A stretch of DNA of 64,000 nucleotides, from the NCBI RefSeq assembly GCF_056746865.1, contig NZ_CM163382.1. One strand, written 5' to 3'. The notes under the pieces were generated by a model. That model saw only the letters and a list, made by a program, of their open reading frames with translations. It did not search any database and was not told where the DNA came from. Within the stretch, counting starts at the first letter, position 1; each line of letters opens with the position of its first letter. The translations under genes were made by a program, and so were the position numbers. Of the stretch, positions 37,306 through 47,325 are shown piece after piece.

Positions 37306-37445
37306 AAGTCAGCTTCCTGTTATTAATGAAGTTAATGCTTCTCATTTTCATTGTAACCACAACCAGATGCAACCCCGAGTTGCAGATTGCGTTACCTCAA
37401 GAGTTGACATAGTGCGCGTTTGCTTTTAGGTTAGCGACCGAAAAT

Positions 37446-37464
37446 ATAAATGATAATCATTATT
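37446..37464. promoter_or_regulatory. Fur box in the divergent fepB / entCEBAH promoter region
   Basis: ataaatgataatcattatt is a near-consensus Fur box. Confidence 0.75.
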
Positions 37465-37493
37465 AAAGCCTTTATCATTTTGTGGAGGATGAT

Positions 37494-41160: not shown

Positions 41161-42322
<1,162 letters not shown>

Positions 42323-42502
42323 GCCCGACAGAATTAAATGAGATTGCAGGAAAACTCGGTTAACGGAGTGATCGAGTTAACATTGTTAAGTTAAATATTG
42401 GTTTCAACTCCGATTTACATGGTTGCCGTGTTGTTAAATTGTACAAAGATGTTATAGAAACAAAATGTAACATCTCTATGGACACGCACACGGATAACAA
42501 CT

Positions 42503-44608
42503 ATGAACAAATCAGGGAAATACCTCGTCTGGACAGTGCTCTCTGTAATGGGAGCATTTGCTCTGGGATACATTGCTTTAAATCGTGGGGAACAGATCAA
42601 CGCGCTGTGGATTGTGGTGGCGTCGGTCTGTATCTATCTGATCGCTTACCGTTTTTATGGGCTGTATATCGCCAAAAATGTGCTGGCGGTTGACCCGACG
42701 CGTATGACGCCAGCGGTGCGCCATAACGACGGGCTGGACTATGTGCCGACGGACAAAAAAGTGCTGTTCGGTCACCATTTTGCGGCCATTGCCGGAGCAG
42801 GTCCGTTGGTTGGGCCGGTACTGGCGGCGCAAATGGGTTACCTGCCAGGGATGATCTGGCTGCTCGCTGGGGTGGTTCTCGCCGGTGCGGTGCAGGATTT
42901 CATGGTGCTGTTTGTTTCTACGCGCCGCGATGGTCGCTCGCTGGGTGAGCTGGTCAAAGAAGAGATGGGGCCAACCGCCGGGGTGATTGCGCTGGTGGCC
43001 TGCTTTATGATCATGGTCATTATCCTTGCAGTACTGGCGATGATCGTGGTGAAAGCCCTGACCCATAGTCCGTGGGGAACGTATACCGTTGCGTTCACCA
43101 TTCCGCTGGCGCTGTTTATGGGGATCTACCTGCGTTATCTGCGTCCGGGGCGTATTGGCGAAGTGTCGGTGATTGGCCTGGTATTCCTGATTTTCGCCAT
43201 TATCTCTGGCGGCTGGGTGGCAGAAAGTCCGACCTGGGCACCGTACTTTGATTTTACGGGTGTGCAGCTGACCTGGATGCTGGTGGGTTACGGCTTCGTG
43301 GCGGCGGTGCTGCCAGTGTGGTTGCTGCTGGCTCCGCGCGACTACCTCTCAACCTTCCTGAAAATCGGGACTATCGTCGGTCTGGCGGTAGGCATTTTGA
43401 TTATGCGCCCGACGCTGACCATGCCTGCGCTAACTAAATTTGTCGATGGCACAGGCCCGGTATGGACCGGTAACCTGTTCCCGTTCCTGTTTATCACCAT
43501 CGCTTGTGGCGCGGTGTCTGGCTTCCATGCGCTGATCTCTTCCGGTACCACGCCGAAGATGCTGGCGAACGAAGGGCAGGCGTGTTTTATCGGCTACGGC
43601 GGGATGTTAATGGAATCCTTCGTAGCGATTATGGCGCTGGTTTCCGCCTGTATCATCGATCCGGGTGTGTACTTCGCCATGAACAGCCCGATGGCGGTGC
43701 TGGCTCCGGCAGGGACGGCGGATGTGGTTGCTTCTGCCGCGCAGGTGGTGAGTAGCTGGGGCTTTGCGATTACCCCGGATACGCTAAACCAGATTGCCAG
43801 CGAAGTGGGTGAACAGTCGATCATTTCCCGTGCGGGCGGTGCGCCGACCCTGGCGGTGGGGATGGCCTACATTCTGCACGGTGCGCTGGGCGGCATGATG
43901 GATGTGGCGTTCTGGTATCACTTCGCCATTCTGTTTGAAGCACTGTTTATTCTGACGGCGGTGGATGCAGGTACGCGTGCCGCGCGCTTTATGTTGCAGG
44001 ATCTGCTGGGCGTGGTGTCTCCGGGCCTGAAACGGACCGATTCACTGCCTGCTAACCTGCTGGCAACGGCGCTGTGCGTACTGGCGTGGGGCTACTTCCT
44101 CCATCAGGGTGTGGTCGATCCGCTGGGCGGTATTAACACCTTGTGGCCGCTGTTTGGTATTGCCAACCAGATGCTGGCAGGGATGGCGCTGATGCTCTGT
44201 GCTGTGGTGCTGTTCAAAATGAAACGTCAACGTTACGCCTGGGTGGCGCTGGTACCAACGGCCTGGCTGCTGATTTGTACCCTGACCGCAGGCTGGCAGA
44301 AAGCGTTTAGCCCGGATGCGAAAGTCGGCTTCCTGGCGATTGCTAACAAGTTCCAGGCAATGATCGACAGCGGCAATATTCCATCGCAGTATACTGAGTC
44401 ACAACTGGCGCAACTGGTGTTCAACAACCGTCTTGATGCCGGGTTAACCATCTTCTTTATGGTGGTCGTGGTGGTTCTGGCACTGTTCTCGATTAAGACG
44501 GCACTGGCGGCATTGAAAGAGCCGAAGCCAACGGCGAAAGAAACGCCGTATGAGCCAATGCCGGAAAATGTCGAGGAGATCGTGGCGCAGGCGAAAGGCG
44601 CGCACTAA
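42503..44608 (+). CDS. cstA: Carbon starvation protein CstA (peptide/pyruvate transporter family)
   Basis: 701-aa ORF MNKSGKYLVWTVLSVMGAFALGYIALNRGEQINALWIVVASVCIYLIAYRFYGLYIAKNVLAVDPTRMTPAV... Confidence 0.97.
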   Translation: MNKSGKYLVWTVLSVMGAFALGYIALNRGEQINALWIVVASVCIYLIAYRFYGLYIAKNVLAVDPTRMTPAVRHNDGLDYVPTDKKVLFGHHFAAIAGAGPLVGPVLAAQMGYLPGMIWLLAGVVLAGAVQDFMVLFVSTRRDGRSLGELVKEEMGPTAGVIALVACFMIMVIILAVLAMIVVKALTHSPWGTYTVAFTIPLALFMGIYLRYLRPGRIGEVSVIGLVFLIFAIISGGWVAESPTWAPYFDFTGVQLTWMLVGYGFVAAVLPVWLLLAPRDYLSTFLKIGTIVGLAVGILIMRPTLTMPALTKFVDGTGPVWTGNLFPFLFITIACGAVSGFHALISSGTTPKMLANEGQACFIGYGGMLMESFVAIMALVSACIIDPGVYFAMNSPMAVLAPAGTADVVASAAQVVSSWGFAITPDTLNQIASEVGEQSIISRAGGAPTLAVGMAYILHGALGGMMDVAFWYHFAILFEALFILTAVDAGTRAARFMLQDLLGVVSPGLKRTDSLPANLLATALCVLAWGYFLHQGVVDPLGGINTLWPLFGIANQMLAGMALMLCAVVLFKMKRQRYAWVALVPTAWLLICTLTAGWQKAFSPDAKVGFLAIANKFQAMIDSGNIPSQYTESQLAQLVFNNRLDAGLTIFFMVVVVVLALFSIKTALAALKEPKPTAKETPYEPMPENVEEIVAQAKGAH

Positions 44609-44611
44609 AGT

Positions 44612-44700
44612 CAGAGTGAGGGGGGAATGTTGGCGAAAGTTGGCATGGTGCCGAGTGTTCCCCCTCACCCTAACCCTCTCCCCGTTGGGGCGAGGGGACT
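44612..44700. repeat. REP-like palindromic element or terminator between cstA and ybdD
   Basis: Two GC-rich hairpins: gagtgaggggggaa ... ttccccctcac, and ccctctcccc-gttg-gggcgagggg. Confidence 0.5.
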
Positions 44701-44758
44701 GACCGAGCGCGTTGATAGCTATTAATGCACTCTATCAGCAACCTGTTTACCGGAGGTA

Positions 44759-44959
44759 TTGATGTTTGATTCACTGGCAAAAGCCGGAAAATATTTAGGT
44801 CAGGCGGCGAAACTGATGATTGGTATGCCTGATTACGACAACTATGTCGAACATATGCGGGTTAACCATCCCGATCAAACGCCGATGACCTACGAGGAGT
44901 TTTTCCGTGAGCGGCAGGACGCGCGCTACGGTGGAAAAGGCGGCGCGCGCTGCTGCTAA
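44759..44959 (+). CDS. ybdD: Small protein YbdD (DUF466)
   Basis: [65 protein letters not shown]; immediately downstream of cstA. Confidence 0.9.
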
Positions 44960-44968
44960 ATATGTACG

Positions 44969-46057
44969 TCAGGCTTTAAACGATTCCACTTTTTCGAACG
45001 CTGCACGCAACGTATCCGGTGTCAGCGTGACCGGCAGGTAATGAATGGATTCCACCGGACGCAAGGTGTGGGCAATCACTTTGTCGATCTCCGCCTGATT
45101 ATTGATATCCACTTCCAGCTCCGCCAGCGTAGTCGGCAGATGAAAACGCTGATACGCTCCAGTTAATTGCGCCAGCACATCATCCTGACCCAGCAAGGCG
45201 CTTTGCACCAGAATTCCGTAGGCGACTTTGGTGCCGTGGAGAAACTTCTCGGTTTGCGGCAGCACGGTCAGACCGTTATGCACGGCATGAGCTGCTGCCA
45301 CACGCGTAAAACGATCGCCCAGACCACCGACCATTCCACCTCCGGCAATAATCGCATCCACCACATCGCAAAATGATTGCGTTAACTGGTGATTTTGCTG
45401 ATCGGCAAGCGCCTGTTCGCTACTGTTTAACAAGACGTCGCGAATGGCCTGCGCATTATTGATCCCCAGTCGCACGGTTAGCGGCAACGTTTCTGGTTGC
45501 GGGGCCAGCACCACCGCTTCATACCATTTCGCCAGCGTGTCACCGATCCCCGCCAGCAGATATTCTTGCGGCGCATTGAGGATAATCTCTGGCTCCACCA
45601 GCACCATAAAATTGGCGTCGTCGAAAATCTCATAATGCAGCGCCTGTCCGGCATCGTTATACCAGACGGAGAGCGGTGTCCAGGCGGCGCAGGTGGCGGC
45701 GATCGTCGGAACGGCAACAAACGGCAGACCGAGACGGCGGGCGAGGGCTTTCGCGGTGTCGAGCAGTGCGCCGCCGCCGACGCCAATCACCACGCTGCGA
45801 TCGTCACCGGACTCAGCCGCCAGTTGTTGTACATCGCTTTCGCTGCAATGGCCGCGAAACAAAATATGCTTTGCCCCTGGCAGTTCAAACGCTGGCGGAA
45901 GTTTTGTTTGCGCCGCAGCAATGGCGCGTTCGCCGTAGATCCACACCGCGCGAGAAAGTTGTTCATCAGTGAAAAAATCGTGCAGGTGATTGAGACTGCC
46001 GGGATGTGAAAAGTAGTTAGCCGGGCCGACGACCACGCGGATAGGATTGTGAGGCAT
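44969..46057 (-). CDS. ybdH: YbdH, iron-containing alcohol dehydrogenase / glycerol dehydrogenase family oxidoreductase
   Basis: 362-aa ORF MPHNPIRVVVGPANYFSHPGSLNHLHDFFTDEQLSRAVWIYGERAIAAAQTKLPPAFELPGAKHILFRGHC... Confidence 0.93.
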   Translation of the reverse strand: MPHNPIRVVVGPANYFSHPGSLNHLHDFFTDEQLSRAVWIYGERAIAAAQTKLPPAFELPGAKHILFRGHCSESDVQQLAAESGDDRSVVIGVGGGALLDTAKALARRLGLPFVAVPTIAATCAAWTPLSVWYNDAGQALHYEIFDDANFMVLVEPEIILNAPQEYLLAGIGDTLAKWYEAVVLAPQPETLPLTVRLGINNAQAIRDVLLNSSEQALADQQNHQLTQSFCDVVDAIIAGGGMVGGLGDRFTRVAAAHAVHNGLTVLPQTEKFLHGTKVAYGILVQSALLGQDDVLAQLTGAYQRFHLPTTLAELEVDINNQAEIDKVIAHTLRPVESIHYLPVTLTPDTLRAAFEKVESFKA

Positions 46058-46164
46058 GTTGTGTTGTCCTTATTGTTTTATTTAGACATCTAAACGTCTT
46101 GATTGCCAAATACTAGCATCGTGTTATAGTGCCTTCAACACAACTTCGTCAGGCACAATAAAAA

Positions 46165-47325
46165 ATGACAAATAACCCTCTGATTCCACAAAGCAAACTT
46201 CCACAACTTGGCACCACTATTTTCACCCAGATGAGCGCGCTGGCGCAGCAACACCAGGCGATTAACCTTTCGCAAGGCTTTCCTGATTTTGATGGTCCGC
46301 GCTATTTGCAGGAGCGGCTGGCGTACCATGTTGACCAGGGGGCAAACCAATACGCGCCTATGACTGGCGTGCAGGCCTTGCGCGAGGCGATTGCTCAGAA
46401 AACGGAACGTCTGTATGGCTATCAACCGGATGCCGATAGTGATATCACCGTAACGGCAGGGGCGACGGAAGCGTTATATGCAGCGATTACCGCATTGGTG
46501 CGCAATGGTGATGAAGTGATCTGCTTTGATCCCAGCTATGACAGTTACGCGCCCGCCATCGCGCTTTCGGGGGGAATAGTGAAACGTATTGCACTGCAAC
46601 CACCGCATTTTCGCGTGGACTGGCAGGAATTTGCCGCATTGTTAAGCGAGCGCACCCGACTGGTGATCCTCAACACCCCGCATAACCCCAGTGCAACTGT
46701 CTGGCAGCAGGCTGATTTCGCCGCTTTGTGGCAGGCAATTGCCGGGCACGAGATTTTTGTCATTAGCGATGAAGTTTACGAGCACATCAACTTTTCACAA
46801 CAGGGCCATGCCAGCGTGCAGGCGCATCCGCAGCTGCGTGAGCGGGCGGTGGCAGTTTCTTCATTTGGCAAGACCTATCATATGACCGGCTGGAAAGTGG
46901 GTTATTGCGTTGCGCCAGCGCCCATCAGTGCCGAAATTCGCAAGGTACATCAGTATCTGACCTTTTCGGTGAATACCCCGGCACAGCTGGCGCTTGCCGA
47001 TATGCTACGTGCAGAACCTGAGCATTATCTTGCGTTACCGGACTTTTATCGCCAGAAGCGCGATATTCTGGTGAATGCCTTAAATGAAAGCCGGCTGGAG
47101 ATTTTACCGTGCGAAGGTACATACTTTTTGCTGGTGGATTACAGCGCCGTATCTACCCTGGATGACGTTGAGTTTTGCCAGTGGCTGACGCAGGAGCACG
47201 GCGTAGCGGCGATTCCGCTATCGGTGTTTTGCGCCGATCCCTTCCCACATAAACTGATTCGTCTCTGTTTTGCCAAGAAGGAATCGACGTTGCTGGCAGC
47301 AGCTGAACGCCTGCGCCAGCTTTAG
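46165..47325 (+). CDS. ybdL: Methionine aminotransferase YbdL (PLP-dependent)
   Basis: 386-aa ORF MTNNPLIPQSKLPQLGTTIFTQMSALAQQHQAINLSQGFPDFDGPRYLQERLAYHVDQGANQYAPMTGVQALREAIA... Confidence 0.95.
   Translation: MTNNPLIPQSKLPQLGTTIFTQMSALAQQHQAINLSQGFPDFDGPRYLQERLAYHVDQGANQYAPMTGVQALREAIAQKTERLYGYQPDADSDITVTAGATEALYAAITALVRNGDEVICFDPSYDSYAPAIALSGGIVKRIALQPPHFRVDWQEFAALLSERTRLVILNTPHNPSATVWQQADFAALWQAIAGHEIFVISDEVYEHINFSQQGHASVQAHPQLRERAVAVSSFGKTYHMTGWKVGYCVAPAPISAEIRKVHQYLTFSVNTPAQLALADMLRAEPEHYLALPDFYRQKRDILVNALNESRLEILPCEGTYFLLVDYSAVSTLDDVEFCQWLTQEHGVAAIPLSVFCADPFPHKLIRLCFAKKESTLLAAAERLRQL

Follow-up and report, generated by a model that had tools for sequence, protein, structure and literature searches.

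A BoxC repeat copy between cstA and ybdD of Escherichia coli and its coincidence with a mapped RNA 3′ end

The spacer between cstA and ybdD of Escherichia coli carries a structured element which is almost certainly a type-A copy of the BoxC repeat, a family also described under the names PIT, TMECO and HPG1. In strain K-12, a mapped RNA 3′ end lies at the base of the structure that the element is predicted to form in the cstA transcript. Both the repeat family and the K-12 copy between cstA and ybdD have already been published, and the element as such is known. We read it as a BoxC repeat that acts on RNA as a barrier and assign this combined reading a probability of roughly 0.55. For its functional half taken separately, namely that the element marks or stabilises the 3′ end of cstA as an exonuclease barrier and is not an intrinsic terminator, the odds appear about even.

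The window, a stretch of 64,000 nucleotides of contig NZ_CM163382.1 (assembly GCF_056746865.1), includes the E. coli ent-cstA-ybdD-hcxA locus, with hcxA located on the minus strand and converging with cstA-ybdD. A preliminary description, made from the sequence alone, had reported two GC-rich palindromes after the cstA stop codon. Both are evident in the sequence and were recovered by an inverted-repeat search with 86-87% complementarity. The arms of the first palindrome are gagtgaggggggaa (44614-44627) and ttccccctcac (44658-44668), those of the second are ccctctcccc (44674-44683) and ggggcgagggg (44687-44697). Within the interval 44609-44758, which had been described as the double hairpin, the structured element occupies only about 44609-44713. 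The remainder, 44714-44758, is made up of flanking sequence, an empty REP site and the ribosome-binding site of ybdD (Table 1). The lack of a trailing T run, also recorded in that description, was borne out: neither stem is followed by T-rich sequence, and a pattern scan of 44400-45100 for a hairpin followed by a T-run yielded no terminator-like site. A pattern scan for promoters at cstA-ybdD, ybdD included, returned no sigma-70-like promoter. In an Rfam scan of 42000-47000 with a permissive threshold no family reached its gathering score; two sub-threshold hits, mir-423 (26 bits versus 71) and an antizyme frameshift element (23 bits versus 40), are considered chance matches.

Table 1. Features of the cstA-ybdD spacer, RNA 3′ ends associated with BoxC copies, and spacer types among E. 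coli genomes. Positions are those of the window unless marked K-12.
Feature	Position	Strand	Basis and remarks
cstA ORF	42503-44608	+	ORF list
cstA stop codon (TAA)	44606-44608	+	ORF end and sequence; the structured element starts 2 nt after
Closing stem, 5′ half (GUCAG)	44610-44614	+	MFE and centroid; partner CUGAC at 44699-44703
Hairpin 1	44616-44668	+	outer stem 44616-44626/44658-44668 (11 bp), inner stem 44630-44635/44649-44654
Two tandem 11-nt units (atgttggcgaa / agttggcatgg)	44627-44648	+	loop of hairpin 1; nine-variant alignment
BoxC/PIT/TMECO core, type A (TTA loop): CCCTCGCCC-CAACG-GGGAGAGGG-TTA-GGGTGAGGG	44662-44696	-	exact consensus match
Hairpin 2 (CCCUC(U)CCCC / GGGG(C)GAGGG)	44674-44696	+	9 bp, one U-C mismatch; fold
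Conserved BoxC flank aacgcgctcggtcagtc	44697-44713	-	holds CUGAC (44699-44703), the 3′ half of the closing stem
Equivalent of the K-12 3′ end	44707	+	hairpin 2 ends 10 nt and the closing stem 4 nt before it; the K-12 ybdD start codon follows 84 nt downstream
Empty REP site	44724-44726		filled by a 29-nt REP, ~28 nt after the BoxC core, in K-12 and the majority of E. coli; pairwise and nine-variant alignments
Likely decayed remnant (gcactctatcagcaac...) of a terminator-like hairpin	44727-44745	+	suggested by alignment; intact in the Nissle type
ybdD ribosome-binding site (GGAGG, 44752-44756) and ATG (44762-44764)	44752-44764	+	sequence; ybdD annotation of a genome identical across the 150-nt interval
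BoxC-associated end, cstA	K-12 632098	+	
BoxC-associated end, fepB 5′ UTR	K-12 624567	-	
BoxC-associated end, lldD	K-12 3781065	+	'primary' lldD end of the authors
BoxC-associated end, hrpB-mrcB	K-12 164636	+	
BoxC-associated end, degenerate copy	K-12 4231270	-	
K-12 spacer type			BoxC plus 29-nt REP near the equivalent of 44725; 3699/5426 genomes
Nissle spacer type			hairpin 1 without hairpin 2, and ahead of the ybdD ribosome-binding site a terminator-like hairpin, GCCCTC..GAGGGC-ATTTGTATT; 1187/5426 genomes
Window spacer type			BoxC without REP; about 401/5426 genomes

The affiliation with BoxC is based on an exact match to the published motif. The TMECO consensus CCCTCNCCC-N3-6-GGGNGAGGG-N3-GGGNGAGGG (Holder et al. 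2015; PMC4666352) occurs once in the window, at the core position on the minus strand, and not at all in shuffles of the window. A second BoxC copy was not found in the window when up to three mismatches were allowed. The HPG1 21-mer GGGAGAGGGTTAGGGTGAGGG, equivalent to a type-A copy with TTA as second loop, is likewise exact at 44662-44682 on the minus strand. Holder et al. equated the TMECO motif with the BoxC repeat of the 1990s (Bachellier et al.) and with the 'PIT element' of Hoyne and Maher (2000), and the 21-mer is the G-quadruplex/hairpin motif of Kaplan et al. (2016; PMC5100583). Table 1 of the latter study contains a row reading cstA >>> 51, 632058, -, 108 >>> ybdD. The K-12 and window spacers align with each other, which identifies this listed copy as the ortholog of the one in the window.

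The similarity extends into the sequences next to the core. Twelve K-12 copies anchored on the core are bordered by a shared gYgCnCgRaCRGTC flank and, at the opposite edge, by GAACAGGCCAGCAC.., and the window copy possesses both (..gctcggtcagtc-core-ggaacactcggcac.., as in the K-12 copies with ..CRGTC 5′ and GAACA.. 3′). A copy from Pseudocitrobacter has a flank similar to window 44697-44713. The size of about 56 bp given for the BoxC unit (PMC2267715) fits a flank extension beyond the 35-nt core. In its exact consensus, its TTA loop, its common flanks, its intergenic location and its multiple copies the element resembles the BoxC family throughout. A blastn search with the 150-nt interval gave hits in 5396 of the 5426 complete E. 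coli genomes, at 15 places each in the median, and 68,865 of the 68,890 places were chromosomal. Further copies in the genome, for which the preliminary description had proposed a search, are hence present, and its view of a repetitive extragenic element, not a simple terminator, was right in kind, in keeping with the absence of a T-run and of terminator activity in PIT reporters. The dispersed repeat was thereby upheld; a REP/BIME nature was not, as BoxC is a separate family, nor does the whole double hairpin constitute the repeat, the core of which comprises hairpin 2 and only the 3′ arm of hairpin 1; the loop and 5′ arm of hairpin 1 belong to an older structure found throughout Escherichia.

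REP/BIME elements stabilise mRNA 3′ ends, for example between malE and malF, by forming a barrier to 3′-to-5′ exonucleases. The BoxC element shares with these palindromic units (PU) the character of a dispersed, extragenic, GC-rich palindrome, the intercistronic position and the same proposed action as an exonuclease barrier favouring the upstream cistron, whereas the sequence families are unrelated. Identity with REP/BIME was rejected: the REP palindrome (~35 nt, GCCGGATAAGGCG...CGCCGCATCCGGC) is absent from the window spacer, and the REP of K-12 is a separate insertion.

The predicted fold was evaluated against 200 dinucleotide-preserving shuffles. For RNA 44597-44707, minimum free energy and centroid structures agreed in a three-way junction composed of the closing stem, hairpin 1, hairpin 2 and a 4-nt 3′ tail. 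Hairpin 2 corresponds to the internal hairpin of the BoxC core, with the C-rich strand in the sense of the cstA mRNA. Hairpin 1 alone reached -29.7 kcal/mol (z = -4.0, 0/200 shuffles as good), hairpin 2 alone -17.2 kcal/mol (z = -2.7, 2/200) and the 166-nt spacer -68.2 kcal/mol (z = -3.4, 2/200). The K-12 allele adopted the same predicted topology as the window allele, but with a shuffle z of -0.05, because a sequence rich in G and C runs folds well even after shuffling. Since folding is driven by composition to this degree, the case against a chance structure rests mainly on family membership and conservation and not on the shuffles by themselves.

Previous work has treated BoxC as a DNA structure of unknown function, and the G-rich strand, here the minus strand, could in principle form a triplex or G-quadruplex which stalls polymerases, drives instability or serves as a topological switch. 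This strand matches a motif that adopted a triplex in vitro according to CD and NMR (PMC4666352) and that takes up either a G-quadruplex or a hairpin form depending on K+ or Mg2+ (PMC5100583), and the locus exhibits small indels of the kind attributed to such motifs by those authors. However, no triplex was indicated by DMS footprinting in vivo, and oligonucleotides in double-stranded form remained duplexes (PMC4666352). At cstA the G-rich strand is the template, so that the C-rich mRNA cannot form a G-quadruplex, and the block that would provide the third strand is already paired in hairpin 1 of the predicted fold. A role at the DNA level is for these reasons considered improbable.

Mapping of the 3′ end of the cstA transcript had been suggested in the preliminary description as well, and published Term-seq data place such an end at the element. 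Adams et al. (2021; PMC7815308) determined the dominant RNA 3′ ends of K-12; the strings in their table comprise 50 nt upstream, the end nucleotide and 10 nt downstream, which was confirmed on the entry of the sgrS terminator. Their Supplementary file 1 contains the end 632098(+), detected in LB at an OD600 of 2.0 with 1686 reads, in the string ...GGGGCGAGGGGACTGACCGAG/CGCGTTGATA, with the junction ...GGGGCGAGGGGACUGACCGAG/CGCG (the slash marks the end). With K-12 cstA located at 629894..631999, the offset converts this end to window position 44707, the Term-seq data being from K-12, in which a REP follows 3′ of the element that the window strain does not carry. The end is modest, was called in one of three conditions and belongs to the 'orphan' class of the authors.

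The end at cstA has counterparts at other BoxC copies. A motif search of the supplement of Adams et al. returned five 3′-end strings with the type-A motif (Table 1). In every one of them the RNA carries the C-rich sequence and ends 3-11 nt beyond the hairpin, and none of the five ends lies in a U-tract. By chance about 0.05 ends were expected (3110 ends per 9.28 million strand positions, multiplied by ~17 copies and 9 positions), a figure which assumes a uniform genome and would still be well under 1 with a ten-fold intergenic enrichment. Mapped ends were present at only about a third of the type-A copies. The Term-seq analysis used uniquely mapping reads only, and ends at repeats are therefore more likely under-called than over-called. 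At BoxC copies in the G-rich sense (adk, fabI, gcvP and alx) the Term-seq data contain no ends at the element. In the case of adk the mapped end is situated at its own terminator, ~55 nt further, which indicates that RNA polymerase reads through BoxC. In the library searched, the motif was treated as a bacterial element only by Holder et al. (2015) and Kaplan et al. (2016), besides one review in which HPGQ is mentioned, and no paper tying the BoxC motif to RNA 3′ ends came up; the coincidence with such ends sets the present observation apart from the treatment of the motif as a DNA structure.

We favour an exonuclease barrier as the underlying mechanism because each end follows a stable structure by a few nucleotides and is outside of U-tracts, because RNA polymerase passes the adk copy, and because PIT elements did not act as terminators in earlier reporter work, as recounted in PMC4666352. 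The role in stabilising cstA mRNA or modulating ybdD expression that the preliminary description had proposed would be in line with the mapped end and with the comparison of orthologous spacers. The cstA transcript would fold into a very stable three-way junction which, without any termination activity of its own, would block the 3′-to-5′ exoribonucleases that trim transcripts ended or cleaved downstream. The result would be a defined and protected cstA 3′ end 4 nt beyond the structure, and the cstA portion of the message would outlast the ybdD portion. In this view, stalling of exonucleases, rather than termination or endonuclease cleavage, would generate the end; its formation may alter the stability of cstA mRNA or the CstA:YbdD ratio, and the barrier effect may have been selected. 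Several considerations weigh against this mechanism. In the same reporter work PIT elements also displayed neither promoter activity nor any blocking of polymerases in vivo. The cstA end is modest, only about a third of the type-A copies have mapped ends, and the K-12 spacer in which the end was mapped has a REP in addition. Hairpin 2 is missing at the locus in ~22% of the E. coli genomes (1187/5426) and is dispensable, and any stable hairpin would act in this manner, so that a mapped end alone does not demonstrate selection. Constitutive pyruvate uptake needs both CstA and YbdD (PMC5847655), and RNA polymerase must therefore either continue into ybdD to some extent or start there from a promoter specific to this gene. 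Information on the operon or promoters of cstA-ybdD was not found in that study (Hwang 2018), nor were cstA or ybdD transcript data in the SMRT-Cappable-seq supplements.

Processed ends of Rho-terminated transcripts offer a related precedent. As cited from Dar and Sorek (2018; PMC6061677) in Adams et al. (PMC7815308), 3′-to-5′ exonucleases shorten transcripts that were terminated or cleaved further downstream until a stable stem is reached. Like those ends, the cstA end follows a stable hairpin at a distance of a few nucleotides, and this hairpin has no U-tract. A further likeness is a Rho termination region on the opposite strand just past the cstA element, 631994(-) in the bicyclomycin experiment, which by coordinate conversion lies ~11 nt past hairpin 1. 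The comparison differs in one respect: the bicyclomycin experiment was performed at an OD of 0.5 only, when the sense end of cstA was not called.

The spacers of related bacteria show which structures occupy this position elsewhere. From species-representative genomes, 77 orthologous cstA-ybdD loci were recovered. The usual spacer had 47-63 nt and one GC-rich hairpin, the family of which varied by lineage. Salmonella and Citrobacter contain the hairpin GCCCTCTCC..GGGGAGGGC-GTTTG, Enterobacter, Lelliottia and Leclercia a REP-like GCCGGGTGGCGCTAGCGCTTACCCGGC, and Kluyvera a different palindrome. Single BoxC copies or inverted pairs were present in Enterobacter hormaechei, Enterobacter asburiae, one Enterobacter cloacae, Lelliottia, Leclercia, Pseudocitrobacter, Phytobacter, Cedecea and Pluralibacter. 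None of these copies is arranged as in E. coli and close relatives are without BoxC, which points to several independent acquisitions of the repeat in cstA-ybdD spacers. Of the orthologous spacers, 74 were long enough to fold, and 67 of these had z < -2 (median -3.4), compared to 2.7% of coding-sequence controls of the same length. The paralogous btsT (yjiY)-yjiX locus has the same gene arrangement and likewise a GC-rich spacer hairpin with a Term-seq 3′ end: in K-12 an 8-bp GC stem is followed by UUUGUUCUU, and the strong 'primary' end 4589097(-), with 59,788 reads, lies in a U-rich (CUUUGU) stretch.

A Rho-independent terminator or attenuator that directly sets transcription into ybdD would conform to some of these observations. 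The btsT-yjiX hairpin has the features of such a terminator, canonical hairpin-plus-T terminators occupy the cstA-ybdD spacer in Atlantibacter, one Citrobacter freundii strain, Kosakonia and Buttiauxella, and the K-12 end follows the structure. Yet the btsT-yjiX signal is a simple 8-bp stem plus U-rich stretch with the end inside, whereas the element behind cstA belongs to a repeat family and has no U-tract, its mapped end being 10 nt past hairpin 2 in GACUGACCGAG and not in a U-tract directly after the stem. The read-through at adk and the inactivity of PIT elements as terminators, in the reporter work as reported in PMC4666352, also argue against direct termination, which we regard as very unlikely for the E. 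coli element.

Hairpin 1 may derive from paired BoxC loci, five of which are described for K-12 by Holder et al. (PMC4666352). It is of composite build. The third block of the BoxC core supplies its 3′ arm, while its 5′ arm, GAGTGAGGGGGG, is at the place that the first block of the inverted type-B partner takes in paired loci. Unlike those loci, the window has one complete unit only, and in place of the inverted type-B partner a single inverted block abuts the cstA stop codon. Hairpin 1 of several Escherichia could be aligned to the middle of four BoxC pairs of K-12 in the pattern GGGTGAGGGG-AACA..C.GCAC...AACATT.CCCTCAC, and on this basis it looks like the relic of a palindromic BoxC pair. 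Such pairs are prone to small deletions which still leave a hairpin (PMC4666352). Hairpin 1 was present in all 13 Escherichia variants examined, including E. albertii, E. whittamii and two unnamed lineages, and its folding energy stayed between -20 and -40 kcal/mol although the loop contains many indels; in E. albertii it carries one A-U to U-G double change. The outgroup Escherichia and the Nissle 1917 form are without hairpin 2, and there the 3′ arm runs on as ..CCCCT(C/T)ACTCTCAGC. The most parsimonious order is that hairpin 1 was ancestral to the genus and the full type-A unit was gained later in most E. coli via the common CCCCTCAC block; alternatively, the full element may have been ancestral and subsequently lost.

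Within E. coli the locus is polymorphic. It was identified in 5419 of 5426 genomes and fell into at least eight length classes, with three principal spacer types (Table 1). Among nine aligned locus variants, the 11-nt loop unit of hairpin 1 ranged from zero to three copies. This indel polymorphism fits the instability published for BoxC/TMECO/HPG1 motifs, and specifically the raised local variability noted by Holder et al. (PMC4666352). It also bears on an ATG-initiated ORF of 32 codons at 44627-44725, which could be taken to encode a small protein. The frame is broken by indels of 8, 10 and 11 nt and larger ones among E. coli strains, the ATG has no evident Shine-Dalgarno-like sequence upstream as read from the sequence, and the region is a dispersed non-coding repeat; as the frame is not conserved among the E. 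coli variants, this reading was rejected.

The same variability suits the main rival to an exonuclease barrier, which partly overlaps with it: a neutral or selfish repeat, that is, a decaying BoxC copy carried passively and with no selected local role, at which the RNA end is a by-product. We consider such neutral carriage possible, although it is the less probable account. Consistent with it are the length variants within E. coli, the genomes devoid of hairpin 2, the variable presence of REP and the changing copy number of the 11-nt unit. In addition, the third block of the K-12 cstA-ybdD copy is mutated, and the ~190-bp paired BoxC of the K-12 fepB-entC spacer is wholly absent from the window, where the shared segment GCGGTAGAGCGGGGCGAGTCTCACAA, read by eye, marks the indel. 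The literature, moreover, reports no function for the repeat and a raised local instability. Against neutral carriage stand the stable hairpins in ~90% of the orthologous Enterobacteriaceae spacers and in the paralogous btsT-yjiX spacer, as well as the retention of hairpin 1 through many indels and the double change in E. albertii. Furthermore, where hairpin 2 is missing in E. coli, another hairpin of terminator-like form has been kept, which resembles that of Salmonella and Citrobacter and has probably decayed in the BoxC/REP lineages. Taken together, the hairpins of orthologs and paralog, the retention of hairpin 1 and the terminator-like hairpin kept where hairpin 2 is missing suggest that a structure is needed at this spacer even if its sequence family is interchangeable.

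A wider interpretation is put forward only tentatively. BoxC/TMECO may act mainly at the RNA level, with hairpins that form or protect 3′ ends in an orientation-dependent manner, as REP elements do. The cstA-ybdD and btsT-yjiX spacers may be under selection to maintain a stable hairpin of one kind or another, which would set how much transporter message there is relative to that of the small partner; for this purpose lineages would use an attenuator, a REP, or BoxC singles or pairs interchangeably. The ancestral terminator-like hairpin would then have decayed after the arrival of BoxC or REP in most E. coli.

With respect to cstA-ybdD alone the finding adds little, since the repeat family and this copy are already in the literature. 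The Term-seq coincidence and the turnover of spacer hairpins provide new angles of modest weight and no surprises. Earlier experiments on BoxC addressed DNA structure, promoter activity and terminator activity. The RNA 3′ ends that closely follow five BoxC copies, each on the C-rich strand, suggest a simple and testable role at the RNA level for a repeat known since the 1990s, to which the literature assigns no function. Hairpin turnover can be observed in compact form in the cstA-ybdD spacer, a natural case in which unrelated families occupy the same position in different Enterobacteriaceae, and this turnover bears on the co-expression of the pyruvate transporter CstA and its small partner YbdD.

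The cstA-ybdD spacer varies considerably within E. coli. In K-12, the third block of the BoxC copy is mutated and reads GGGTGAGAGGG; because of this mutation, the copy fails the strict TMECO pattern and hairpin 1, the older, Escherichia-wide hairpin of the spacer, is weaker. The main text of Holder 2015 (PMC4666352) does not mention cstA, while the K-12 cstA copy is listed by Kaplan 2016 (PMC5100583). Downstream of the BoxC flank and ahead of the ybdD ribosome-binding site, K-12 has a 29-nt REP insertion, as do about 68% of the complete E. coli genomes; its site is empty in the window-type spacer. The loop of hairpin 1 contains an 11-nt unit, ATGTTGGCGAA, present in 0 to 3 copies across E. coli strains, and strain F9792 has lost part of the inner stem by a 10-nt deletion. 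Both kinds of change look like slipped-strand variation.

A terminator-like hairpin, GCCCTCTTAATTCAGGAGGGC followed by ATTTGTATT, is intact in the 1187 genomes which carry neither hairpin 2, the internal hairpin of the BoxC core, nor the REP. This hairpin of the Nissle 1917-type spacer (L010) is similar to that in the cstA-ybdD spacers of Salmonella and Citrobacter. In contrast, its counterpart in the window reads GCACTCTATCAGCAAC and has lost the ability to pair, a difference which may reflect a turnover of structures.

In K-12, a Rho termination region with a Rho score of 4.5 was assigned to antisense RNA (Adams et al. 2021, Supplementary file 2, PMC7815308). It maps just within the cstA 3' end, directly past BoxC and hairpin 1, both of which the antisense transcript has already crossed at this point. 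The crossed stretch is C-rich and G-poor and thus resembles a Rho loading site.

Coordinates of spacer features in the window and in the comparison sequences
Feature	Window	Comparison sequence or K-12 position	Strand
fepB-entC spacer	37306-37481	L003, K-12 624511-624884
Term-seq 3' ends, fepB-entC BoxC pair		K-12 624567 and 624680	-
Antisense Rho termination region	~44603	K-12 631994	-
Hairpin 1 loop with 11-nt units	44627-44648
BoxC copy, cstA-ybdD	44662-44696	L001 3053-3087	- (window)
REP (site empty in window)	~44724-44726	L001 3126-3154
Nissle-type hairpin (counterpart in window can no longer pair)	44727-44745	L010 148-180
btsT-yjiX spacer		L101 2581-2629	-
Term-seq 3' end, btsT-yjiX		K-12 4589097	-

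Compared with the window, the K-12 fepB-entC spacer contains an insertion of about 190 bp. The insertion is an inverted pair of one type-A and one type-B BoxC located in the fepB 5' UTR; the pair is wholly missing from the window, and in K-12 it has two Term-seq 3' ends (PMC7815308). The 49-nt spacer of btsT-yjiX, the paralogous K-12 gene pair for a transporter and a small protein, contains an intrinsic-terminator-like hairpin, and a strong 'primary' Term-seq 3' end with 59,788 reads was reported there (PMC7815308).

In several other genera, single BoxC elements or inverted pairs occur within the cstA-ybdD spacer (L021, L024, L050, L067, L070, L038, L044, L071, L063, L077), in arrangements differing from that of E. 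coli; close relatives have spacers without BoxC. A CCCTCTCC..GGAGAGGG hairpin is already present in many BoxC-free spacers, and homology may carry BoxC into such look-alike hairpins. A YbdD sharing 98% identity with that of E. coli was encoded on a very short (465 bp), low-coverage contig labelled Streptomyces sp. DH24 (L015), almost certainly an enterobacterial contamination of this assembly. In three lineages, Enterobacter sp. Bisph1 (L019), Kosakonia cowanii (L020) and K. quasisacchari (L068), the spacer measures only 14-20 nt, too short for a hairpin; a structured cstA-ybdD spacer is therefore not a universal requirement.
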